Shown one piece after another: positions 6,001 through 61,190 of a stretch of DNA of 64,000 bases. Position 1 is the first letter of the stretch; each line of letters opens with the position of its first letter. This stretch comes from a virus. The position numbers and the translations under genes are program-made. The DNA is taken from the IMG/VR virus record IMGVR_UViG_3300030419_005456, positions 32,001 through 96,000 of that record; one strand, 5' to 3'. The notes under the pieces were generated by a model, which saw nothing but the letters and a program-made list of their open reading frames with translations, did no database searches and was not told the DNA's origin.

Positions 6001-7653
6001 ATTACCAATGAGATAGTTTGTAATGCAGAAAAAGACGTTGACTCAGAAGGAAAACTTGTAGATGCTGGATATAAATGGAAAAAGACAGGTTGGTGGATGC
6101 CTACCTTTAAATATACGTTGTTTACTATGGGTGCAAGACACACCGATGGTCACATAGTAAAAAGTGAACACGATCTTAGAGCCGGAGAAAAGATTATCAT
6201 AAATGGGTCTGAGTGTCACAAATCCTACTGTGCTGCACACCCACAAGCAAACGAAAAATGGGAATTGCCAGATCATATATCTGGCGGAGATAGTGAAATG
6301 ATCGAGGGGATGGAGGATGAGCAAGTTAAACATCATCCAACATTAGACAAAACACTTTGTGAAAAAGTATATGGAGGTGTTTGGACTAGCCCCAAAAGCA
6401 GTGAGAGCGTACAACAAGGATGCTCTCCCTTATGTAGACTAGACTTATGGTGGGATAAAAATGCTTGTGGTGACAACTGCATGGATTCTATAGTTACTGA
6501 GCCATATTGTAGTTGGAAAGAAAACGGTGACAAAGCACGACTAAAAGTTAAAAACAATACTAGCTACTGTATGCTGTTAGGCAAGAGGGTAGATTTAAAT
6601 GAGGCTGATTGTAAGGCTGTAAAAGCTTATGAATGTAAGGTTACTTCTGGCCCCAACGCGGGAAAATATTTAGATACTGGTAATTGTGAAGAGCCTTTAG
6701 GTACGAATAACGAGAATACAACAGACGATCAATGTCCGTGTTGTCCAGACCCCACACAGACGCTAGCTGGGGATATGAAGGCATATCCAGAATGTAAAGA
6801 AAAATGGACTATAAGCACAGGCGAGTGGGTAACCTCACATAGTTATGATCCTGACTTTTCATCGGAAACAGACTGCAAAGACAAAAATAAGTGTGCTTGT
6901 ATTTATACTGGAGCGTCTGGACGAGCAGGTGAAGAGTTTGGTGTGGCAGTAGACGGCGTAACAACAAAGGATGCCTGCGAAGCGTTACGACCTAACACTA
7001 AATGGGTGTGCGGAGGGACAGATACCAAATGGAATCCCGCAACACAAATATTACCAGAGTGTGTCATAGACGGTTCTCATGTGGTAGGATTAATTGATGA
7101 AGATGGAAACGTGATTAGAGACCCTCACAAATTAGGGGGCTTTGGAAATACTCAGATCCGCAAAGACGTATTTACCATCCTTAATGAGAATCCTGTAGTT
7201 CCACACTCACTTCGTCCAGAAAGTCCTAACAATTACAATGATATAATTAATAAAAACGTAGTGACTTCCTTGGGTCATGAAATAATGGGGGGCGCTCCGA
7301 AGAACTTATACAAAGGTAGTACGTACGTAGCCGGAGAGGTAAATGATGAAGGAGAAACAGGACCATATGCTGGTGGTTCATGGAGTCGTCACGGAGGGTC
7401 GTTTAACATTAGGGTAGGATCAAAACCACAGCTAGATGACTGCGCTCAAGGCAATTCAAACACACCAGTCCACTTAACTTACTTTTTAAACATGTCAAAT
7501 TCAATGTGTAATCACTACTTGCCACCAATTGATGACAAATGTAACGAACAATGTTGGCGAGGATATGGACCATATACAGAGCCTAATATGACTTTTGAAG
7601 AAAGAGGAAGAGCTTTAATTAGGGTGGATATAACAGAAAAAGGATCTTACTAG
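1..7653 (+). CDS. Giant cysteine-rich protein, probable virion fibre/adhesin; 5' end lies outside the window (at least 2550 aa)
   Basis: Frame 1 has no stop from base 1 (NVPKGFGATG...) through the track's TTG at 424 to TAG at 7651-7653. Many degenerate Cys/Trp units (KDDCEALGKC, KDACEALRPNTKW, KTLCEKVYGGVW) and two HGL/HDL-x-x-G[DE]-type beta motifs of the kind seen in phage tail proteins. Confidence 0.75.
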   Translation, partial: NVPKGFGATGKGEYVDTNHGSCSVAYYWENSLGLDPHNARSYHNPGDWALRKLNLQPQPFKATEWRQNKKKTLKQAEADRAAFEQCISVRWPTWCQKTGLPFWFENDFLWDKFTYKYGRYGSKTAISDQACAPISQSIYDILQVSYDDKNYGTEDNPEYKGKCVYSFENVQKRVITLDSFSVYEIFDDKGGLASQGAKFESDGSGGVKDHGHSGKEATGRIIDGSKVGFQECMVDEYEYCTDDNYISFEGCMNGGGYWQSTMGTWEYPELEGPGDSGHTQCGGCGSGPRIAFFVDDPPAGLSAQEKLDWERKYRDGQNMKQPGTNPDDYYFINLPSQITSKMAELYTDRKDIDGYDKDETDSLDYWGKTGLWPDHATASYVAHTMLGLNTTRKIEYASNTTPIVVKSINHGLKLGDHVGIDGILGNFRANTWTLGQWMEQAWHNKRSSPCGGETDCDAPIWPDAVCPCNDGSCSHPKGADSKEACESIRNTWDDFCKLDGVDISGSAFGDLVESNDWSEEDAKEYCYSSGKCYKTHPDGTRIEEISGAVVESEGYLSQHTCFAYGNRQGGDGFKYEFDHHNKLCLVEGELKYAEDKNYCENAYDHSLGGVWQGSTDKYPPEAKAKSSSECSDTNHKNKDDCLKARPKWTQGKSFGKDNEHCSGVTIKGKAPPPADFFVVKPVDDDHFQLWNCAGEPIEGTIDEGVVCEGDEALDVTEKACGNTIAPWNQGVIGQTGGQEIEMVKQTIWGIEKEWPMLKLSNSIPLNEDNCTEYGYCWIVGIGYEAESIMTQTDCFNLARVYEKIEMTEASKKAGKFQHTLLLAPLDKNPDNVNPCVNGTDPSECWQPLEWTRKKSIEEAAGERTSAAITNWQVCPHTGVWTIWDMNTTNPLVSDPADPSISWRPFWTESAYKSEKGAEDNYVYIHQEEVCPVCCDHFMPEKLLATVDGLAVTGSTGLVEGTDHFNYMTSGTHNVKVPDTDNDYCAEIKDGKRTKTDKEYVDCKVDENTPEGVTYEWIVPLKATTVNCGINACTGKFYDFVETQTIDLRTNAKGRVGGKYCCDCGGYYENGVWYTTECVKCSDALRFDDPVVDHEFGDSQLGIAPDPCCSCECNPGEGNTHKTSLMDYKYPTYKQVCDSPLMPQEAGKTLTVGELTCKTVTVEEECVATVASCLDLDSEEKCNAADVGDGGCYWASDTTPSGDEFFYCKDRADSVPFSSDSVCAERYEEKDACNASPVCVWQDEKTACSCGTDGTGRKGCTGFPNNRPLTCEPSQLGTNRGACEYDFNGAKIIAGGSTVDKDGYYVNDEANSAEGCGEPNVYAMPTAECWSYKYKTGDGCRGLGTKTVEMEYNGSHWTTPWFPMMADTPKTRTLNDGQSYPEFVGGMSCQNFAIHANCEAGYGGRNADKTYKQILVSSMGDSQADMNCGGCSTHEWNGVGTPPIPSPKMDAYLMRVRMGCGGAYQQYHGMDTLKSGDYYQNNQLSLWSEITKCTYHMCNKFNVMDSYRPPCPGQGDGCVNTSNWAEQGWCKFGDTDGFCDCPVLDATGLAPDFKAVKTITDDKVCLSSYHPDLEDTTDCGGLEDCHCVWAHPDSKFGCEKEGGEWIRSEEPIPYYDDCVNWNGWVAVPGVDCDSQLPCTECCSFYPPTPQMVFNTTKPYDEHGAPKQYISCASASMISSLEATPYGIEGMPFPRWKHHKHADRVTKMETTGWNPKTPENFTVYFVEDYASDYVANAGHSLVVNKGSREACNWHAGDPVSIGMADRVEAETGQGFGFTRDRLSAQPDWPNHTTELASDIADGKARWENSMFRDSAEEAYMEIHVKNAGALISRASIEQSRYWRAQERYLASEPWPYGDRIWPVGHQNNSKSPSATVNVGELESVGGNALSAANAARNGRIGHLPTLDNITDPKKAVFIGEWPKHEVEYKGNDEGEDDTTNPIPVNNNDFNNSIAIAEVENVYDWDTAYCTNPVAKNKDDCEALGKCLGVADEETGIRPVIEDITNEIVCNAEKDVDSEGKLVDAGYKWKKTGWWMPTFKYTLFTMGARHTDGHIVKSEHDLRAGEKIIINGSECHKSYCAAHPQANEKWELPDHISGGDSEMIEGMEDEQVKHHPTLDKTLCEKVYGGVWTSPKSSESVQQGCSPLCRLDLWWDKNACGDNCMDSIVTEPYCSWKENGDKARLKVKNNTSYCMLLGKRVDLNEADCKAVKAYECKVTSGPNAGKYLDTGNCEEPLGTNNENTTDDQCPCCPDPTQTLAGDMKAYPECKEKWTISTGEWVTSHSYDPDFSSETDCKDKNKCACIYTGASGRAGEEFGVAVDGVTTKDACEALRPNTKWVCGGTDTKWNPATQILPECVIDGSHVVGLIDEDGNVIRDPHKLGGFGNTQIRKDVFTILNENPVVPHSLRPESPNNYNDIINKNVVTSLGHEIMGGAPKNLYKGSTYVAGEVNDEGETGPYAGGSWSRHGGSFNIRVGSKPQLDDCAQGNSNTPVHLTYFLNMSNSMCNHYLPPIDDKCNEQCWRGYGPYTEPNMTFEERGRALIRVDITEKGSY

Positions 7654-31313: not shown

Positions 31314-32026
31314 TGTTCTAAATCTCTAAGAGAGTTTATTTCTCGTATGCTCATACCTTCTGGTTCAAGAGCTTTGATTTTCGCACCTCTGTTTAGCATT
31401 GTGTTAAATAGCTCAAAGGGATACATCTTGTTTCGTTTTCTGTCCAAACATAAACTTTTAAACGTTTCTAATTCTTTTCCTTCTAGGTAAATTATCTGCG
31501 CCCATTTTGTCTCTAACCCATAAGAAAAGTTAGTTACTACGCCGTCTATTACAGTTACGCCCACGCTTTCTTCTTTAAATCTACCTTGGGAGTCAACTAG
31601 AATACAAGACCCATCCTTTGTGATGTCTTTTATTGACTTGGGGTTGAAAATTAAGTCTCCGTATATAATTAAAATTCGATCATGTATAGAATTATTAATC
31701 GCCAGTCTAAGGCTCTCTACTATGTTGGTTTGATCGTAAAGTTGATTTTCTATAACCCTAGCTTGCTTTGGTAAAACTTTAATTATTTTATCAGCCTCAA
31801 ACCCAACGACTGTAATTATTTCAGAAAAGGGAAAAAGGTTTTTTGTATCGTTAATAATTTTTGTAATTATAACATCTTCATGATTAAGGGGCAGCAAGCA
31901 TTTAGGGCCATAGGATTTCATTCTATGGCCCATTCCTGCTGCTGGTATAATTACGGTCAATTCTTTATCTCTTACCGTTCCAGCACCAGATTTTTTAGCT
32001 GACGTTATAAATCTGTTTTTAGACAT
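31310..32026 (-). CDS. LicC/MobA-like nucleotidyltransferase
   Basis: IIPAAGMGHRMKSYGPKCLL, TNIVESL, IYGDL, EIN. Confidence 0.8.
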   Translation of the reverse strand: MSKNRFITSAKKSGAGTVRDKELTVIIPAAGMGHRMKSYGPKCLLPLNHEDVIITKIINDTKNLFPFSEIITVVGFEADKIIKVLPKQARVIENQLYDQTNIVESLRLAINNSIHDRILIIYGDLIFNPKSIKDITKDGSCILVDSQGRFKEESVGVTVIDGVVTNFSYGLETKWAQIIYLEGKELETFKSLCLDRKRNKMYPFELFNTMLNRGAKIKALEPEGMSIREINSLRDLEQ

Positions 32027-38825: not shown

Positions 38826-40403
38826 CTAAAGTTCTAATATTTGATCGACTATTACTCCGTCACGTTCTCCCTGTACAGATTTTCCAATAATAAGAACATT
38901 GTTTCCTGTATATAATAAATTTTTGTAGTTTTCCCAAGGTTCATTAAATACGGTAATGTTTTCAAGAACTCCTGTTCCATCTTCTACTGCAAGAAAGCCC
39001 ATCTCTTTACCCTTTTGCTTTCCTTTTTTAGTTATATACTTTCTTATATCTGTTAAGGTAACAGCCAATTTAACTGGCCCCTCTTTGCCTTGAACAACCT
39101 CCTTGCAGGTTGTGTCAGACCTACTTGTGTCGCAAGAATCAACTTTAGAATAAGTAAGGGTTACTCCAAAGTAGTTCTCTTCTGTACGGGTTATCCATTC
39201 TGGATCATCATCCAATGACGAATATGGTTTTTTAAGATGCTCTACAAGATCGCTTACTATTTCGGTGCGATTCTTGTTTGCCACACCGCCACCTTCTTTC
39301 TTTGGTTTGGAAAGTGCTGTTAGTAGCTCTTGCAAGCTGTCCCAGTTTTTATAATTTTCCAAAGCCCAGTCAGTCTCTTTGCTGGTTATTTTTTGCCAAG
39401 TGTCAAACTCGTCCAGCATTAATTGTCGAGACATTCTTGTATGCGAGAGCATGCCAGTAGAAATTAAAGCCTTGACTGCTGTGCTTGTTACGTTCTTAGA
39501 AAAGCAAACCAAAAATTCATACCATGTCCAGTCGCATATTTTTTTACCGATAAATTCTTCAGCTTTTTTAACTTCTGAACTAAGCTCTACGATTTTATTC
39601 TTACCAAGAGATTTGACATTACTTAACCCAAAGTGAATCTTGCCGTCAATTATCTCAGTATCCGCATTCATATGAGATATGGATGGCGGGTGTATAAAAA
39701 CATTGTGTATTTTAGCGTCGGATACTAGCTCTCTGACTTCTCTATGTGGGTCTTGTTTTCCGCCGGAGTATCTAAGGTAGTTACAATAAAACTCTAGGGG
39801 AAAATGTGTTTTTGCGTATGCTGACCAGTATCCACATATGGCATATGAAACCGCATGCGATTTATTAAAAGCGTACCTGCTTGATTTTTCAATCCAAGAA
39901 AATATTTCCTCTGCGGACTCTTTTGAAACAACCTTTTGTTTAGAAGCACCTTCTATAAAGGACTTTTTTATCTTTGCCATCAGGTCTGCTTTTTTCTTTC
40001 CGATAGCTTTGCGAAGATCGTCAGCTTCTTGTAGATTGAATCCAGCAATAGCCTGAGCTATTTTCATAGACTGCTCTTGGTAGACCAGAACGCCCTGCGT
40101 ATTCTTAAGAATAGGCTCTAGTGACAAATCAATGTAAGTTACACTGTCTTTGCCATTTTTTCTATCTACATAGTGTTGCGTTAGGGATTTTTCATCCACA
40201 AAGGCTTTTAGGCATCCCGGTCGAATAATTGAAACAAGAGCGGCAAGCTCTTCAATATTTCTTGGCTTGGCTCGCTTTGCCCAAGACTTGCCGAGACTGC
40301 TCTCTAGTTGAAAAACACCCTTCGTTCTTCCAGAGCAGATTAAGTCCCAAGTCGCTTTGTCGTTGTAATTAATCTCTTTTACATTAAAGGTGGATGTTTC
40401 CAT
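38826..40403 (-). CDS. dnaE: DNA polymerase III alpha, C-terminal half (fingers, HhH, OB)
   Basis: GVFQLES, IRPG, LVYQEQ, ADDLRKAIGKK, YAFNKSHA, FGLSNVK, FLAVEDGTG; likely start METSTF at 40403. Confidence 0.92.
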   Translation of the reverse strand: METSTFNVKEINYNDKATWDLICSGRTKGVFQLESSLGKSWAKRAKPRNIEELAALVSIIRPGCLKAFVDEKSLTQHYVDRKNGKDSVTYIDLSLEPILKNTQGVLVYQEQSMKIAQAIAGFNLQEADDLRKAIGKKKADLMAKIKKSFIEGASKQKVVSKESAEEIFSWIEKSSRYAFNKSHAVSYAICGYWSAYAKTHFPLEFYCNYLRYSGGKQDPHREVRELVSDAKIHNVFIHPPSISHMNADTEIIDGKIHFGLSNVKSLGKNKIVELSSEVKKAEEFIGKKICDWTWYEFLVCFSKNVTSTAVKALISTGMLSHTRMSRQLMLDEFDTWQKITSKETDWALENYKNWDSLQELLTALSKPKKEGGGVANKNRTEIVSDLVEHLKKPYSSLDDDPEWITRTEENYFGVTLTYSKVDSCDTSRSDTTCKEVVQGKEGPVKLAVTLTDIRKYITKKGKQKGKEMGFLAVEDGTGVLENITVFNEPWENYKNLLYTGNNVLIIGKSVQGERDGVIVDQILEL

Positions 40404-41064
40404 CTGCAAAAGCCTTTTCAAATTTAACCGTAGGAGCAAATTTTCTATACAACTTCATAAACCCTATGAGTAGGTTTGCTGTATCTTTCACATCTTGCAG
40501 GGCGTCATGGGCGTTTTCTTTGTCCATGCCAAGCAAGTCTCTCATAGAGTCCATGCTAAGAGACTTAACATCTGGATTATTTTCAAACCACATCCATACA
40601 GTTTCCAGCAAATCAATCCTGTGAATTCTGTTGAAGATGGTCTGCCGACCCTGCTTGTCAGTAGGGCCGTATGCCTCGCACATTCTCTGCACAATAGGCA
40701 TATCAAAACCGTTGATATTGTAGCCCGCAGCTATCGGGGCAAAATAAGGGGTTTTCTTCCAGTTATACTTGTTAACAAAGTTGTTAAACTTGCCCCACAC
40801 AGTTTTTGGAAGAGGGGCTTTTGCAAGCTTCTTCCTATCTTTTCTTGTAATGGCCAAAGCCTCATCTTCAACTGGATCAAATCCAGCAGCAACGGCCTTC
40901 TCATCGTCCAGTATTGGGCGTATTTCACTATTAAAATACCCTCCCGGTTGCACTGTTAGCTTCCTTCCATGAATAGCAACAGCGGCTATTTGCGTGGGTT
41001 GCGTTTTGAGAGGATCTCTAGAACCCGTTTCAAAGTCAAAAACAATAATATCTCTATAGTTCAT
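40384..41064 (-). CDS. DEDDh 3'-5' exonuclease (DnaQ/epsilon-like)
   Basis: FDFETG, GYN..GFD, HDALQD. Confidence 0.9.
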   Translation of the reverse strand: MNYRDIIVFDFETGSRDPLKTQPTQIAAVAIHGRKLTVQPGGYFNSEIRPILDDEKAVAAGFDPVEDEALAITRKDRKKLAKAPLPKTVWGKFNNFVNKYNWKKTPYFAPIAAGYNINGFDMPIVQRMCEAYGPTDKQGRQTIFNRIHRIDLLETVWMWFENNPDVKSLSMDSMRDLLGMDKENAHDALQDVKDTANLLIGFMKLYRKFAPTVKFEKAFADGNIHL

Positions 41065-41285
41065 CTAATTTTCCTTTTTAGATCAAAGAATTTATCTATA
41101 GCTTCGTCAACGTCTTCATACAGCACGCTAAATGAATATTTATGAGATTCATTATGAACCTGATATTTTATTACATTGTCACGCATTCGATAGTAGTCAT
41201 TAATTCTACAAATAGACAGAGATTTATATTGTTCATATCTTCCGTTATTAATTTTGTCTTTAATTCTTTGTCTATGCGTGGACAC
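41061..41285 (-). CDS. Small hypothetical protein between dnaE-N and the exonuclease
   Basis: 74-aa ORF overlapping both neighbours. Confidence 0.6.
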   Translation of the reverse strand: MSTHRQRIKDKINNGRYEQYKSLSICRINDYYRMRDNVIKYQVHNESHKYSFSVLYEDVDEAIDKFFDLKRKIR

Positions 41286-43197
41286 TATTATCTCCCTCTA
41301 ATTGGTCCCTAATTCCCATAACTTTGTCTAGTAAAGATATACCAAGTATATCAAACTTTACATGACCCATTGATTCAAGATCTCCCATTTCCATACCGGC
41401 TATTTTTTCTGTTCCTCTCTTGTCTCTAACCATTGGACAGACAGTGTTCAAATTATGTGACGAAATAACAACTCCAGCAGCATGCTTACCCTGAGACTTA
41501 AACGTACCCTCAAGTCTCATTGCTTGCTCGAACATTTTCGAGTATTCACCCTCTAGAGATCCGTCATCATTTAGTCGGCAGTAATCTCTTAATATTTCTG
41601 GTTGATTTATTAAAGTCCACTGAATAACTGAGGGGTTATCCATGTCTGCAAGCTGGTCAGAAATTTCATGCTCATACGGAAGGCTTTTTGTGATCATGTT
41701 CATCTCTTCGTATCCACAAGCCTCATTCATTCGCAAGACTTCTTTTATGGCACTTCTACCTTGCAAGCGACCAAAAGTTACCATTTGGCTTACTTTTTCA
41801 TTTCCATACTTCTGTCTAATGTAATTTATTACATCGTCTCGTTTAGAAGCCGGAACATCAATGTCTATATCAGGCAAAGATACATGATCTTTAGTGTTTC
41901 TTCCGGCGTTGTAAAATCTTTCAAAGATAAGACCATGCTCAATGGGATCAACCTGAGTAACGCCAATTAACCATGATATTAAACAGCCAGCAGCAGAACC
42001 TCTTCCCGGCCCCGGTATCCAACCATTATCTTTGACTTGGTTTACAATGTCTCTAACTATTAAGAAATAGCCCGACAGATTGGCTTCCTCTATGACCTTT
42101 AGTTCGTTTTTTACACGCTCTCCATACAAGCTCTTTTTGTCGGGAGAATCTATCTTGCTGGTGTTTTGTAATTTTGACATCCAGCCTTCTCTGCATAGAG
42201 ATTTAAGATATTCCTCCTCCGAACCGTGTTTCTCTGGATATTCAAACTCTGGAAGCATAGGGCTTCCTAGAATATCATAATGCTCACACATGTCAGCTAT
42301 GTTGGCAGCATTTTCTATTTCGCTTGGTGTGTTGACTCTTTGTATTTCTTCTAAAGAAGGTATGTGAAAATTGTGAGATCTCATAAAACCGCTAAAGCCG
42401 ACATCTTCATTATTTGCGATTTTCGATTTAATTTTCCTGAGCGTGGTCTTCATGGCTGAACACAGAAGTAACAGATGATCTCCAGCATCATTTTTTCTTG
42501 GGTAATGAGAGTCAGCAGTTGCCACTGTTGCTATCTTTAGTTTTTTCGCTATATACCTCAAACCTTGAGCTACTAATTTTGCGGCAGGAGAATTTTCTTC
42601 GTCGATAGCTTGTATTTCAATAAGAAAATTGTCTTTTCCAAAAGCATCTAAATATATGTAAACCATCTGCGTTACATTCTCTACCCAGTTTGGGTCGATA
42701 AATTTCTTAACGCCAACCTCTGTGTCTTGGTTGTATGCCTGTTTATAATCTGTAAAGATGGCATTTGCTAAGTCGCTACCAAGATGCCCACTAAACGCAA
42801 TCAGATTTCCGTTGGCATATTCAGAAAGTCTATTTAGATCAATGCGTGGTTTATAATAGTACAAGTCTTCATCGTTACTTCTAGAAACAGCCTCGATTAG
42901 ACTGTGCCATCCCTTTGCATTTTTTGACAGAACAACCAAATGGCTCAATGATCGGTTCTCTGGACTTTGTATAGTGGCGTCCTGTTCGGTAAGATAAAAT
43001 TCACACCCTAATATTGGCTTGATATTTTTATTCTTACAGGCTTGAGTAAAAGCTACAGCACCAGCCACAGTTCCATGATCTGTAAGGGCGCAAGATTCAT
43101 AACCAAGTTCTGAACAACGTTCAGCTATTTGTGAAGGCTTGCTGAGTCCATCGAGAAGAGAGTAGTGCGAGTGTAGGTGTAGAGGAGTCCAATTCAT
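41272..43197 (-). CDS. dnaE: DNA polymerase III alpha, N-terminal half (PHP + palm/thumb)
   Basis: HLHSHYSLLDG, LTDHG, GPGRGSAAG, FERF, LPDIDID, KHAAGVVI, KFDILG. Confidence 0.93.
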   Translation of the reverse strand: MNWTPLHLHSHYSLLDGLSKPSQIAERCSELGYESCALTDHGTVAGAVAFTQACKNKNIKPILGCEFYLTEQDATIQSPENRSLSHLVVLSKNAKGWHSLIEAVSRSNDEDLYYYKPRIDLNRLSEYANGNLIAFSGHLGSDLANAIFTDYKQAYNQDTEVGVKKFIDPNWVENVTQMVYIYLDAFGKDNFLIEIQAIDEENSPAAKLVAQGLRYIAKKLKIATVATADSHYPRKNDAGDHLLLLCSAMKTTLRKIKSKIANNEDVGFSGFMRSHNFHIPSLEEIQRVNTPSEIENAANIADMCEHYDILGSPMLPEFEYPEKHGSEEEYLKSLCREGWMSKLQNTSKIDSPDKKSLYGERVKNELKVIEEANLSGYFLIVRDIVNQVKDNGWIPGPGRGSAAGCLISWLIGVTQVDPIEHGLIFERFYNAGRNTKDHVSLPDIDIDVPASKRDDVINYIRQKYGNEKVSQMVTFGRLQGRSAIKEVLRMNEACGYEEMNMITKSLPYEHEISDQLADMDNPSVIQWTLINQPEILRDYCRLNDDGSLEGEYSKMFEQAMRLEGTFKSQGKHAAGVVISSHNLNTVCPMVRDKRGTEKIAGMEMGDLESMGHVKFDILGISLLDKVMGIRDQLEGDNSVHA

Positions 43198-54422: not shown

Positions 54423-56618
54423 TTAGACTAATTCACATGCTCCTCCAGAACAAGCCCATTCCTGTTCGGGCTTGACATTATCCTGTTCTTCTATAACGTC
54501 TGTATAATTTACCTCTTTATACTCTCGTTTTAAATCCACCCATTCTTTCCAGTTGTACACATCTTTCATGCAATATGTCAACTTTTTCATATCTCCTTCC
54601 ATATATTTATCTGCAAACTTTGCGCATCTCTTCATCCAGTTTCTCTTGGCTCCACCTCTGACTGACTTGCCAATACCAAGAAGTGAGTCGCAAGCAGCCC
54701 AAAGGTTATCTTCCCATAGGTCTAGGGCAACTTCTATGAGTCCGCTAACCCATAGTGAAGCGTCACCGTAATGAGCAACCTGTTCGCTTGGTAGATATAT
54801 GGTAGTAAATGGGGCTTGTGGATAATCCTTATCTCCAGTTACTGGCAGTAAAGAAATTCCACAAAAGTATTCTCTGTTCTTGTATATAAACTCTTCGACT
54901 TCATCCCATTCGTCTGGCTTTACGTTTATAGTGTTTGAAACATTGTGATTTAACCACGGCTTGGTACACAAGGAGTCGGTCTTACCTATCATAACCCAAT
55001 TCTGCTGTGTGCTTCTCACGTATTCCAACAGATCTATAGCACCTATTTGATTTTTAGTCTTTGACCCCGCTGGAACTTCTATGCAAAAAGATACTACTTC
55101 ATCACTATCATTTGCAGACCAAACAGACTCTTCACAAGCTGTAGGGTTTATTGTTTTAAAGTGCTGGTAAATGTCTTCCATCTTATTGGCTTGTACACGC
55201 CGTATATATCGTTTGGCGTGGTGGGGATGTATCCCACTACTAGTGCCAAGAACGCAACTGGAAGTACCTTCCGGTTTAATACAGGTAGCCCTAGCCGCTG
55301 GATTAATTCCAATTTCTTTCGCTAGTTCTTTATTAACCTTTTTTACCAGTCTAGCACCTTTCTTTTGGATGGCTGGATTTAAGCAAATTTCGTGACTTTC
55401 CATCATGCCTGTCATCGACACGCCAAGAAGAGATTCTCTCTTCAAGATGCGTTCGCTCACCTCGCCCAAATAAGGAAGCTCTATAAAACCAGCCTGTAAG
55501 GTTCCGATGATAGCTGCTGCTCGGCAAGACTCATAAAAGTCTTCTTCTGTTTTTATTTTAGCGCAATTAATGGTGCTGAGATTACACGCCTGCCAGCCTG
55601 ATTCTCCGGTTTTTACATCAACCGGATACATGCCAATTTCAACACAGGGATTTACTATAAGATCTCTATGATCTGACCAGACAAATCCCGGCTCTCCAAA
55701 TTCACGAACGGATTGCATTAACTCGTGGAATTTTTTAGCGGAGGTTTTATTCCGAATGAGAAGTGCTGAGTTGTTAGACCTTCCTCTTTGCGGGTTTTCG
55801 TGAAACCAGTTGCCGGTTTTAGCCTTGGCCATATCCTCGTCGTCAGGAGAAAACAAGCATATCGTTGCTGAACGTCTAACACCACCAGATATAACGGCGT
55901 CGGCGGCATGCATAATTATATCGTATGCTTCGATTGGGTTTAGTTTTCTTAGTTCTTGAGAGCAAAAATCTGCGTTTTTAATAGCCTTTTCTAATATCTT
56001 TCTTATATTTGTTAAGGCTTTTTTTAGGGGTTCTGGGCCGGGAGCTTTACCAGCACTAGAACTTAAATAAGATCCTGCGGGTCTAATTTTAGAAAAATCA
56101 AACTGAACACTTTTACCTGTGTATTCTGGAAAAAGTTCTTCTTGCTCAAAGTAGCTAGAAATCAAGACGCCAACAGCGTCCGACCAACCTTCTATACTGT
56201 CTTCAACAACAAACTTTTTGTTAGTTCTTTTTGTTCCTTTTATAAAGTATGGAAGTTTAGCGATATGGTGTTTCTGAACAGAAAAGCCAGTGCCACAACC
56301 ACACAGTAGAAGATACATGCACTCTTGAAAAAATCTAAGTCGATCACAATAAGAAGAAATGCAGTTATAGATTCTTGCATTATGTTTTAAGATTGGCTTG
56401 CCGCCAAACTGAAGCGCTCTTTGAGAACCCAGAATACGCTTCTTGTACATCATGTCATAAGCCCATGCTATATCACCGTTCTGATCGGGATATTTTTCGT
56501 GCATCATATTCATAACACGATCTACAGATTCACGCCATGTTTCTCTCCTTTTTTTCTCTGGAATCCATCTTGCGTATTTAGAAACAAAAGCGTAGTTCTG
56601 TAGTTCACTGGCTGACAT
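54423..56618 (-). CDS. nrdJ: Class II (adenosylcobalamin-dependent) ribonucleotide reductase, monomeric RTPR type
   Basis: YNC, GGVRRSA, GEPG, NPCVEI, CNL, KPEGT, C-terminal CSGGAC; no ATP cone and no small-subunit gene nearby. Confidence 0.88.
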   Translation of the reverse strand: MSASELQNYAFVSKYARWIPEKKRRETWRESVDRVMNMMHEKYPDQNGDIAWAYDMMYKKRILGSQRALQFGGKPILKHNARIYNCISSYCDRLRFFQECMYLLLCGCGTGFSVQKHHIAKLPYFIKGTKRTNKKFVVEDSIEGWSDAVGVLISSYFEQEELFPEYTGKSVQFDFSKIRPAGSYLSSSAGKAPGPEPLKKALTNIRKILEKAIKNADFCSQELRKLNPIEAYDIIMHAADAVISGGVRRSATICLFSPDDEDMAKAKTGNWFHENPQRGRSNNSALLIRNKTSAKKFHELMQSVREFGEPGFVWSDHRDLIVNPCVEIGMYPVDVKTGESGWQACNLSTINCAKIKTEEDFYESCRAAAIIGTLQAGFIELPYLGEVSERILKRESLLGVSMTGMMESHEICLNPAIQKKGARLVKKVNKELAKEIGINPAARATCIKPEGTSSCVLGTSSGIHPHHAKRYIRRVQANKMEDIYQHFKTINPTACEESVWSANDSDEVVSFCIEVPAGSKTKNQIGAIDLLEYVRSTQQNWVMIGKTDSLCTKPWLNHNVSNTINVKPDEWDEVEEFIYKNREYFCGISLLPVTGDKDYPQAPFTTIYLPSEQVAHYGDASLWVSGLIEVALDLWEDNLWAACDSLLGIGKSVRGGAKRNWMKRCAKFADKYMEGDMKKLTYCMKDVYNWKEWVDLKREYKEVNYTDVIEEQDNVKPEQEWACSGGACELV

Positions 56619-56640
56619 TCATGTTGATCCGTCTGTTAGA

Positions 56641-56676
56641 TATAATAGAAAATCCGCAAGCCAAGGCGTGCGGATT
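56641..56676 (-). terminator. Terminator-like hairpin in the nrdJ leader
   Basis: AATCCGCA / TGCGGATT stem followed by TTCTATT, ending about 25-30 nt before the nrdJ ATG. Confidence 0.55.
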
Positions 56677-56685
56677 GGTTTGTTT

Positions 56686-56848
56686 TATTAAGAGCGACAC
56701 GGGGTTAATTCAAGCATTTTGTTACAGTGGGGTTTGATGTTTTATTTACTTAGGATACATGGTTGAACTAAAATACTTGAAGCGTTTGCGTGTCGAGGGA
56801 GTGTCGCCCCAGCCCTAGTCGTGTACTGCTCTTTAATCCCCGACAAAC
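56686..56848 (-). ncRNA. Candidate structured leader RNA / small RNA upstream of nrdJ
   Basis: Nested helices AAGAGC/GCTCTT, CGACACG/CGTGTCG and TTCAAGTATTTT/AAAATGCTTGAA in a 240-nt gap of an otherwise almost gap-free region. Confidence 0.55.
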
Positions 56849-56859
56849 TATTATACACC
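56849..56859 (-). promoter_or_regulatory. Putative phage promoter GGTGTATAATA
   Basis: Identical to 8200-8210; immediately 5' of the structured leader. Confidence 0.55.
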
Positions 56860-57350
56860 TAAAATAGTATGCCTTGCTCTTCTTTATTTTTTTTGTCTTT
56901 TATGTTTTTTAGGTAAGACAGGTCGGGTAGCATTGTTATAATCTCTAACCCGTTTTCTACGAGATGATTGTAGACAATTTGATCGTCAATATTGCGACCG
57001 TGAACCACACTGTCTATTGGTACATACCATGTTCTGATGTTGTTTTGCCAAAGAAGTTTGGCGCACCTGTGACAAGGCATGTGTGTTATATAGGCTACCG
57101 CTGAAGGGGGGTGGATTACCATATTGCTTATGGCGTTTTCTTCAGCGTGTACCATATAAGGGTATTTATGAGGTCTCTTACTGGGTAAAGAGTCATCGTC
57201 TACCCCAGAGCAAAAACCGTTGTAGCCTATTGATATGACTTTTTTATCAGAAACTAATACGCAGCCCACTTTGGTTTGGGCGTCGTGGCTTCGAGAGGAG
57301 GCTAGATAAGCAAACCCCATAAAATAATCATGCCAAGTCGGTTTTTCCAT
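56859..57350 (-). CDS. dCMP deaminase
   Basis: KVGCVLV, GYNG, HAEENA, THMPCHRC. Confidence 0.9.
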   Translation of the reverse strand: MEKPTWHDYFMGFAYLASSRSHDAQTKVGCVLVSDKKVISIGYNGFCSGVDDDSLPSKRPHKYPYMVHAEENAISNMVIHPPSAVAYITHMPCHRCAKLLWQNNIRTWYVPIDSVVHGRNIDDQIVYNHLVENGLEIITMLPDLSYLKNIKDKKNKEEQGILF

Positions 57351-57432
57351 CGCGTCTTTTCGTCCTTGATCGACGTTGTTTCTTTAGTCGTTTCTTGTCT
57401 CTTTTACTTTTTCTTCTTATCGTTCTTCCCAT
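57328..57432 (-). CDS. 34-aa highly basic peptide (not in the ORF track)
   Basis: MGRTIRRKSKRDKKRLKKQRRSRTKRRDGKTDLA; fills the gap and overlaps both neighbours. Confidence 0.45.
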   Translation of the reverse strand: MGRTIRRKSKRDKKRLKKQRRSRTKRRDGKTDLA

Positions 57433-60963: not shown

Positions 60964-60986
60964 ATTATACCCCTTCTAAAAAAGAA

Positions 60987-61166
60987 TTAAGAAGTCTCTC
61001 GGAGACTATCTCCCACAATCCATGCACCCGCCAATAAGGTGACTTGCATGACTGTATCTGGGTTAACTGTACCTTCACCAAAAATAGTGTCAGCACACAC
61101 AACTACCATGCCAGCTACAGCGACCCAAAATCGTCGTGAACTGACCATCGACTTTAACTTTGTCAT
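60987..61166 (-). CDS. 59-aa two-TM holin-like protein (not in the ORF track)
   Basis: MTKLKSMVSSRRFWVAVAGMVVVC...VTLLAGAWIVGDSLRETS; GGAG RBS; SR[RK]FW start resembles small phage holins. Confidence 0.65.
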   Translation of the reverse strand: MTKLKSMVSSRRFWVAVAGMVVVCADTIFGEGTVNPDTVMQVTLLAGAWIVGDSLRETS

Positions 61167-61190
61167 TTAAAATCTCCATTTAAAAACAAG

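Follow-up and report, generated by a model that had tools for sequence, protein, structure and literature searches.

Expression of a ribonucleotide reductase (RNR) is under riboswitch control in Mesoplasma florum, in which a transcriptional off-switch was reported to lower the expression of an RNR subunit (accessible part of PMC5435998). This 2'-deoxyguanosine (2'-dG, mfl) riboswitch is located 5' of the RNR subunit gene and is, by gene context, the nearest described system to the element presented here (accessible part of PMC5435998). In T4-like phages, PeSLs were described as small composite terminator/promoter sequences that take part in modular shuffling (accessible part of PMC4122927). 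No description of a leader or riboswitch of a phage RNR was found in the open literature, including the accessible parts of PMC9004378, PMC3653736 and PMC5737381, the supplementary motif lists of surveys lying outside the literature covered. Here, we describe a structured leader RNA from a 64,000-nucleotide (nt) stretch of viral DNA, referred to as the window throughout, which comprises positions 32,001 to 96,000 of IMG/VR record IMGVR_UViG_3300030419_005456. The leader occupies the gap between a deoxycytidine monophosphate (dCMP) deaminase gene and nrdJ, the gene of a class II-like RNR.

Sequence comparison places the RNA of the gap in a family of conserved structured 5'-leader RNAs that precede the RNR operons of a group of large marine phages. 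Marine viral and metagenomic contigs yielded 32 distinct leader sequences of this family, all of them located just 5' of an RNR operon encoding either the class II enzyme (nrdJ) or the class Ia enzyme (nrdAB). On balance, the leader would act in cis as an attenuator or riboswitch-like switch of these phage RNR operons. A function of this kind had been suggested in an earlier reading of the letters of the window (the sequence-only reading), and it gives the best fit to the comparative data.

All features of the site lie on the minus strand of the window (Table 1). The gap between the dCMP deaminase gene and nrdJ measures 240 nt (56619-56858) and contains the promoter-like motif GTGTATAAT, a structured stretch of about 165 nt and a hairpin that ends in a U-rich tail. 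The sequence features that had been named on this strand were all located, and the promoter motif, the structured RNA and the terminator-like hairpin stand ahead of nrdJ in the order described for them. The gap had also been called the largest non-coding one, and among the internal stretches of the window that lack an open reading frame (ORF) of at least 60 amino acids (aa) on either strand it is indeed the largest; no ORF inside it exceeds 43 codons from stop to stop. The ORF of the dCMP deaminase ends with TAG at 56861-56859, abutting GTGTATAAT (56858-56850), and nrdJ starts 231 nt past the motif. The minimum free energy (MFE) structure of the element holds most of the helices named earlier, among them the hairpin with a short U-tract before the ATG, at 56676-56651. 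The runner-up among the ORF-free stretches, 60964-61190 (-), encodes a 59-aa ORF (MTKLKSMVSSRRFWVAVAG...) that resembles a small membrane protein; by eye, similar small ORFs stand directly 5' of nrdJ in two other loci (L016 and L033).

The relatives of the leader were collected by several routes. The first comparison set comprised the 38 viral loci that encode the closest NrdJ proteins, against which a blastn search with the leader gave short chance matches only; in most of these loci its place is taken by a short leader or by a small ORF rich in lysine. By eye, the layout of L001 is alike, with GTGTATAAT followed by GCGACAC...CGTGTCGC around about 90 nt. A blastn search of 56300-57400 against 50,697 phage records gave zero matches. 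Exact-pattern scans, blind to genes and using patterns taken from the shared pieces, were applied to viral and metagenome contigs. The first broad pattern returned at least 120 loci, and only L053 showed blastn likeness to the leader among the matches listed; L040-L159 except L053 were left out of the model search. Other pattern scans were confirmed at 10 of 14 and 12 of 12 matched loci, a single metagenome scan at 19 of 22, and a pattern that left helix B free at 16 of 18. Alignment A2, with 25 distinct sequences, was the basis of a covariance model, R1. Searched against 84 sources, R1 returned 38 matches at E<=1.5e-9, none of them in L002-L038; its matches on the reverse strand reach about 20 bits, against about 150. 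Nine loci that the patterns had matched by chance (L160, L161, L168, L171, L178, L190, L191, L200 and L202) were all rejected by R1. In bacterial and archaeal genomes, pattern scanning gave at least 120 loci, and the model gave no match at E<=0.01 in the 80 of them that were searched.

RNR loci were also fetched regardless of their leader (32 class Ia NrdA and 80 NrdJ loci, a few of which had no upstream sequence). R1 matched 7 of the 32 and 10 of the 80, and this search contributed seven new, more divergent members (L207, L208, L209, L219, L242, L243 and L253). A second model, R2 (alignment A6), was built from 30 relatives, among them neither the window nor L187, the sequence closest to it. 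This blind model has a sole match in the 64 kb, at exactly 56849-56683 (-); the window also has the helix order of the family (A, Pb, B, A', P2, B') and its placement of GTGTATAAT and the RNR gene on the same strand. There is one leader copy in the 125.6-kb genome according to R1. In L004 (947-1019) and L012 (2431-2500), which have the dCMP deaminase-nrdJ order, the leader is just about 70 nt long and is not matched by R1; these two retain GTGTATAAT, a helix-A-like start and the adjoining joining stretch (TGTTGCGGGATTAAGAAC), and by eye they resemble a deletion remnant.

Covariation was counted in the 32 distinct sequences aligned to R1 (alignment A5), over 26 pairs and 828 cells, with 500 shuffles as the control. 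Helix A-A' is not part of R1, and the alignment was therefore not fitted to it. Pairing holds in 92.8% of the cells, and 16 of the 26 pairs changed on both sides (72 cells). The covariation score was 0.293 versus 0.146 in the shuffles, none of which (0/500) equalled it, and only 36-48% of cells pair when the partners are slid by 1-3 columns. These counts support helices A-A', B-B' (P1) and P2. In A-A', columns 12-63 are CG in 27 sequences and UA in 5; columns 15-60 are AU in 16, GC in 13 and GU in 2; and columns 16-59 are AU in 18, GC in 8, CG in 4 and UA in 1. In P1, both-side changes were found in 5 of 10 pairs, including columns 48-188 (GC 25, AU 7), 51-185 (CG 29, UA 3), 52-184 (GC 30, AU 2) and 53-183 (AU 29, GU 2, GC 1), and RNAalifold recovered the helix from an unfitted MAFFT alignment with 9 pairs, 3 of them compensatory and 0 broken. 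The foot of P2 has 6 base pairs (bp), is 96.8% paired and shows both-side change in 6/6, and the P2 region folds into a hairpin in 32/32, often with a short outer helix. The Pb hairpin is formed in 26/26 distinct Pb sequences; its closing A-U and G-C pairs are kept in 24 of them, with varying inner pairs, and in L253 the closing pairs are swapped to G-C and A-U. Helix A of L001 is offset by three bases in the alignment and was thus scored as partly broken; in its own register, by eye, GUCAUCGG pairs with CCGUUGAC at 7/8 positions.

Columns 10-17/58-65 (A-A') cross columns 47-56/180-189 (P1), and the core therefore has the topology of a pseudoknot. The gap between B and A' amounts to two bases (one alignment column), or to zero if the weaker pair of columns 17-58 forms. 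A G-U wobble is found at columns 14-61 of A-A' in 30/32 sequences, which indicates that the structure is specific to the RNR-sense strand. The joining stretches UUUAAAG, GCCAUUGUUGC and AGUUUAA are conserved across the alignment. Two further contacts that were considered by eye, one between the A-rich joining stretch and the U-tract and the other between UUUAAA and AGUUUAA, were unsupported and were dropped.

These results reverse part of the sequence-only reading, in which the pairings TGTCGGGGA/TCCCtCGACA and GGGGCGACAC/GTGTCGCTCT had been taken as mutually exclusive alternatives to a set of nested helices; both proved to be the covarying helices of the family. As for the nested helices themselves, TTCAAG.../...CTTGAA (P2) is supported, whereas CGACACG/CGTGTCG (A'-B') shows no both-side change in the 32 sequences. 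The third, AAGAGC/GCTCTT, is present in the window and was compared across the family by eye only. In L208, L209, L219 and L253, in which A and A' changed jointly, the A'-B' pairing gains a central mismatch.

The motif GTGTATAAT is unchanged across all family members seen despite differing sequence 5' of it, and it is likely to be the -10 element of a phage promoter. It occurs six times in the 125.6-kb genome, with 1.29 copies expected analytically (Poisson P=0.002). Every copy precedes a same-strand ORF of at least 125 aa, at a spacing of 3-71 nt for five copies and of 231 nt at nrdJ; the five are located at 7290(+), 40201(+), which is 8201(+) of the window, 96713(-), 101927(-) and 108235(-) of the whole genome (G000). 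A two-hexamer sigma-70 scan does not call the motif at 56858-56850, a -35 match being absent, and no conserved -35 element is seen among the family members. The spacing from TATAAT to GCGACAC is 41 nt in the first three members.

Terminator-like signals follow the structure in several forms. A U-tract is present at P1 in 26/32 sequences overall: at least six T occur in the 9 nt past P1 in 21/32, five T in L166 and L197, and in L203, L242 and L243 a U6 run starts inside P1, with the ribosome site 3 nt further. A separate strong hairpin with a U-run is found downstream of P1 in the window, where it starts 15 nt from P1, and in L253 (-16.8 kcal/mol, U7). L207 has both forms, at P1 and downstream, and the tandem signals at 1155-1200 of this locus read P1 and U9, then GGCCC...GGGCUUUUU. 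No signal is found in L173, L174 and L188, and in L187 the signal is unreadable where the contig ends. The distance from P1 to the start codon is 12-31 nt in 24/30 readable sequences, which leaves no room for a second promoter, so that transcription of the RNR gene must traverse the leader.

The gene context was counted in 37 loci, three of which are truncated ahead of the gene. In all of the 34 readable loci the next gene is an RNR gene: 29 have an nrdJ-type N-terminus, four encode an ATP-cone NrdA, and in one (L001) a 72-aa ORF is followed by nrdJ. L199 and L179 encode an ATP-cone NrdA, NrdB and a dUTPase in succession, followed by PhoH in L199 (the ORF past the dUTPase of L179 was not scanned), a downstream gene order that matches that of the window, where nrdJ is followed by dUTPase and then PhoH. 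The upstream gene is mostly a dCMP deaminase, whose stop codon lies within TAGTGTATAAT; it is different in L001, L167/L179 and L199/L201. The leader thus stays with RNR when the enzyme class or the upstream neighbour changes. Its presence ahead of class Ia nrdAB as well argues against vitamin B12 or adenosylcobalamin as the signal, and B12 is an unlikely one.

Other observations were made at these loci. In many close relatives a lysine/glycine-rich ORF of about 70-80 aa (...PKFEVNF..RDK.GKPT.KRKTFAS...) lies directly 5' of nrdJ, in the position taken by the RNA leader in the window (L001 2276-2500; L002 2274-2501; L005 2256-2501; L009 2268-2501; L026 2202-2414; L027 2070-2297); in L001 the leader sits 5' of this ORF. 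The nrdJ frame is cut to 154 aa in L162 and to 84 aa in L182, compared with 733 aa in relatives; the frame may be interrupted or shifted, or the assembly may be in error. Small shares of L163:5700-7000 are contained in RNA libraries, namely in 4 runs belonging to 2 studies. A 245-nt Logan contig from these libraries covers L163 6129-6369, with the promoter, the entire leader, the U-tract and about the first 44 nt of nrdJ, and a 229-nt contig covers 6218-6446; each has 11-12 differences from L163, the contigs show no ends, and both could be of DNA origin.

The source genome is a 125.6-kb viral record with an estimated completeness of 83%, and its proteins include a DnaB-like helicase, a UvsX-like recombinase and a DNA polymerase that is split across two ORFs. 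The latter occupies 38826-43197 (-) of the window, with ORF 41272-43197 corresponding to positions 42-614 and ORF 38826-40439 to positions 612-1054 of the phrog_405 profile; about 830 nt separate the two, with another ORF inside, starting MNYRDIIVFDFETG, and either gene splitting or an insertion may account for the arrangement. A scan for transfer and transfer-messenger RNAs with ARAGORN found none.

Table 1. Coordinates of the leader site and of the adjacent genes in the window.
Feature	Position	Strand	Remarks
Promoter-like -10 element GTGTATAAT	56850..56858	-	Predicted; invariant in the family members seen
Whole conserved leader RNA element (covariance-model match)	56683..56849	-	R1 83.7 bits; R2 73.7 bits, E=4.6e-15
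Helix A, 5' arm (UGUCGGGG)	56838..56845	-	At or near the predicted transcript 5' end; TGTCGGGG (56845-56838) pairs with CCCTCGACA (56798-56791); covariation columns 12-63, 15-60, 16-59
Hairpin Pb (AGC...GCU closing pairs, inner AGU/ACU)	56811..56830	-	Weak in the window, -0.9 kcal/mol
Helix B (GGGGCGACAC), 5' arm of long-range helix P1	56801..56810	-	GGGGCGACAC (56810-56801) pairs with GTGTCGCTCT (56700-56691)
Helix A' (CCCUCGACA region), 3' arm of helix A	56791..56798	-	Two bases 3' of B in the window
Hairpin P2, 15 bp and one bulge in the window, distal part variable	56709..56781	-	MFE fold and hairpin folding across the family; TTCAAGTATTTTAGTT (56781-56766) pairs with AACAAAATGCTTGAA (56723-56709)
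Helix B' (GUGUCGCUCU), 3' arm of P1	56691..56700	-	Followed by UAAUAAAA, unlike the U-tract of most relatives
Separate terminator-like hairpin (AAUCCGCA...UGCGGAUU) and U-rich tail UUCUAUUAU	56642..56676	-	MFE structure; hairpin 56676-56651, then TTCTATTAT; -13.3 kcal/mol with the downstream stretch folded alone
nrdJ-type (class II-like) ribonucleotide reductase, 731 aa	54423..56618	-	Gene 3' of the leader; Pfam Ribonuc_red_lgC, RNR-II_ins_dom, RNR_Alpha
dCMP/cytidine deaminase gene	56859..57350	-	Gene 5' of the leader; Pfam dCMP_cyt_deam_1, E=2.6e-19

Comparison with known RNAs showed that the leader shares general features with several systems and matches none of them. A cmscan of the whole window against Rfam 15 (4227 families) gave 0 matches at the gathering score; at E<=10 over 56400-57100 there were three chance-level matches (E 8-9), all outside the leader, and at E<=1 nine other members had none at the leader and one unrelated match elsewhere, to a small nucleolar RNA model. 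The models of the cobalamin riboswitch, the nrdJ motif and the 6S family are unmatched in the window and in the nine other members. The kinship with the nrdJ motif that had been suspected on first reading is thus not borne out; neither is that of a rod-shaped, 6S-like RNA, since the supported fold is no rod: its helices cross, and two hairpins stand at its sides. With the nrdJ RNA motif (Rfam and the accessible part of the Streptomyces literature) the leader shares only the name of the neighbouring gene: it is unmatched by cmscan, it belongs to other organisms and it is also found 5' of nrdAB.

The leader is like riboswitches and attenuators in being structured and directly 5' of RNR, in having a helix and U-tract ahead of the start codon, and in having helices held by compensatory change with conserved joining nucleotides; in other words, it is a covarying structured domain with conserved unpaired nucleotides in a consistent place 5' of related genes, as expected of a riboswitch. 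It has no sequence or structure match to the purine and 2'-dG riboswitches. Unlike the 2'-dG riboswitch, it is phage-borne and has crossing helices instead of a three-way junction, and its own long-range helix abuts the U-tract, most members being without a separate terminator hairpin. The strand order A, B, A', B', with both helices covarying, is that of H-type pseudoknots, which are known from small riboswitch aptamers and viral RNA elements; in the leader, however, the two connecting loops hold hairpins, Pb of about 20 nt and P2 of 60-90 nt. From the alignment, A-A' and P1 could be either a coexisting pseudoknot or successive states. Like the PeSL cassettes, the leader combines an intergenic phage promoter with terminator-like signals where gene content differs (accessible parts of PMC4122927 and PMC2839356). 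It differs from them in being single-copy and RNR-bound, with about 150 nt and five covarying helices, and in having the promoter ahead of the structure. It therefore belongs neither to the 2'-dG riboswitches nor to the PeSL cassettes.

The favoured account, a cis-acting switch, would work as follows. Transcription would start at the predicted GTGTATAAT promoter, a few bases ahead of helix A, and the RNA would fold into A-A' (8-9 bp), Pb inside the loop of helix A, P1 (9-10 bp, with its 5' arm just 5' of A') and the long hairpin P2. Formation of P1 would end transcription, in some members also crowding the ribosome site, and expression of RNR would require read-through. Along the proposed path, A would pair with B first (6 bp), A' would displace B, and the freed B would pair with B', after which the stem and the U-tract would end transcription. 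A ligand or protein favouring one of these states would set the read-through, and the fold would in this way be a sensor setting the flow of polymerase into nrdJ or nrdAB-dut-phoH. In the window, the U-tract of P1 was presumably lost, and the separate hairpin with its U-rich tail may stand in for it.

Several points weigh against such a switch. The start of transcription, the 3' end and the switching are inferred from the nucleotide sequences. The A-B state of the proposed path is without covariation support: the A-B and A'-B' pairings, which could serve as an antiterminator, are possible in 90.4% of cells, with 0 both-side changes and 500/500 shuffles equal, and therefore no second state is backed by covariation. 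The sequences counted are kin, and the shuffle control ignores phylogeny. A consensus terminator scan of the window gave 0 terminators and left the hairpin at 56676-56651 uncalled. As a terminator stem, P1 would have to span about 100 nt (A' and P2), and an enclosed loop of this size is atypical of textbook intrinsic terminators; the lineage of L173, L174 and L188 (3/32) has neither a U-tract nor another hairpin. Taken alone, the 241 nt are no more stable when folded than their dinucleotide shuffles (z -1.07; 29/200 shuffles at least as stable), and it is only by comparison with the relatives that the features of the window exceed chance. With the leader present in 1/38, 10/80 and 7/32 related RNR loci, most related RNR genes are without it, and L004 and L012, with the promoter and helix-A-like start only, indicate that the element can be lost and is dispensable. 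Finally, most of the sequences were gathered by patterns that fix the core, so the invariance of the core is partly due to ascertainment; the members derived from the models show helix cores changing in step.

Among the alternatives, the one that survives best is a stand-alone small RNA gene, in which a promoter, a pseudoknotted RNA of about 150-190 nt and a terminator would yield a product acting in trans, as a protein decoy or by base-pairing, and the adjacency to RNR would reflect co-inheritance. The strong promoter-like 9-mer at a fixed distance from the structure and the terminator-like signal past the structure in 29/32 (in three forms) would both suit such a gene. TTATAAT between the U-tract and nrdJ in L053 and a TATTAT-like stretch in the window are, by eye, candidates for a second promoter; in most members, however, the 12-31 nt between P1 and the RNR start already include the U-tract and the ribosome site, and a second promoter does not fit. 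The RNA of the L173 lineage, being without a terminator, must run on into nrdJ, and the linkage to RNR persists in 34/34 readable loci across differing upstream genes and RNR classes. The RNA-library contigs, whose origin may be DNA, join leader and nrdJ. Taken together, a small RNA of this kind is unlikely, if a serious contender.

A passive role is less probable still. The leader might be a 5'-terminal stabiliser of the RNR mRNA with a leaky terminator, as the start of helix A at the predicted transcript start would allow, or a mobile promoter-terminator cassette for recombination. The latter would accord with its position at a junction of changing gene content (nrdJ or nrdAB downstream, the dCMP deaminase or other genes upstream, the small ORF in L001). 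PeSLs occur in many dispersed copies per genome, with a terminator stem-loop 5' of an early promoter, and there is one leader per genome, in which the promoter precedes the structure, whereas GTGTATAAT alone recurs six times with short leaders. PeSLs are also the precedent for composite terminator/promoter elements in shuffling (accessible part of PMC4122927). In addition, five helices kept by compensatory change, together with conserved joining stretches, exceed what a stabiliser or a promoter/terminator unit would need.

HDV-like ribozymes turn up frequently in phage and metagenome data, and the leader, which begins at the 5' end of the RNA and has helices that cross and two hairpins inserted between them, loosely recalls the nested pseudoknots of this type. 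A self-cleaving ribozyme, or some other RNA with a catalytic or processing role in trimming the RNR mRNA at its 5' end, is nevertheless very improbable: there is no Rfam ribozyme match in the window or the nine other members, the strand order A, hairpin, B, A', hairpin, B' is unlike that of HDV, and neither the strict linkage to RNR nor a U-tract past P1 would be expected. Hardly tenable is the explanation by DNA operators, in which the four copies of TGTCG/CGACA, found in two orientations near the promoter of an nrd gene, would be sites for an NrdR-like nrd repressor and not RNA helices. The compensatory changes preserve pairing and not sequence, the G-U wobble kept in 30/32 would be a C-A mismatch on the opposite strand, Pb and P2 covary as hairpins, and the sites stretch as far as about 160 nt past the -10 element. 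That the leader is a divergent representative of a known family (cobalamin riboswitch, Streptomyces nrdJ motif, 2'-dG/purine riboswitch or 6S RNA) deserves almost no credence, as this view is favoured by gene context only, namely the B12 dependence of nrdJ and the existence of RNR-linked riboswitches (accessible part of PMC5435998), and is opposed by the lack of an Rfam match at the leader and by its occurrence 5' of class Ia nrdAB.

Few metabolic genes are as common in marine phages as those of RNR, and little is understood of how its timing and level are set by the phage. The persistence of the leader across the swap from nrdJ to class Ia nrdAB points to control by deoxynucleotide supply and not by a cofactor. 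A more specific version of the cis-acting switch, which we offer tentatively and regard as doubtful, is a new class of marine-phage riboswitch that would sense a deoxynucleotide signal (a deoxynucleoside triphosphate, a deoxynucleoside or a related nucleotide) independently of B12, with the long-range helix of the pseudoknot as the terminator stem that shuts or opens the RNR operon. If binding of a small molecule is true, the leader would represent a new riboswitch class, in which an aptamer helix doubles as terminator stem within a pseudoknot, and a rare phage-encoded riboswitch that controls a phage gene. If the switch depends instead on a protein or on timing, it would provide a new handle on the transcription programmes of these phages.

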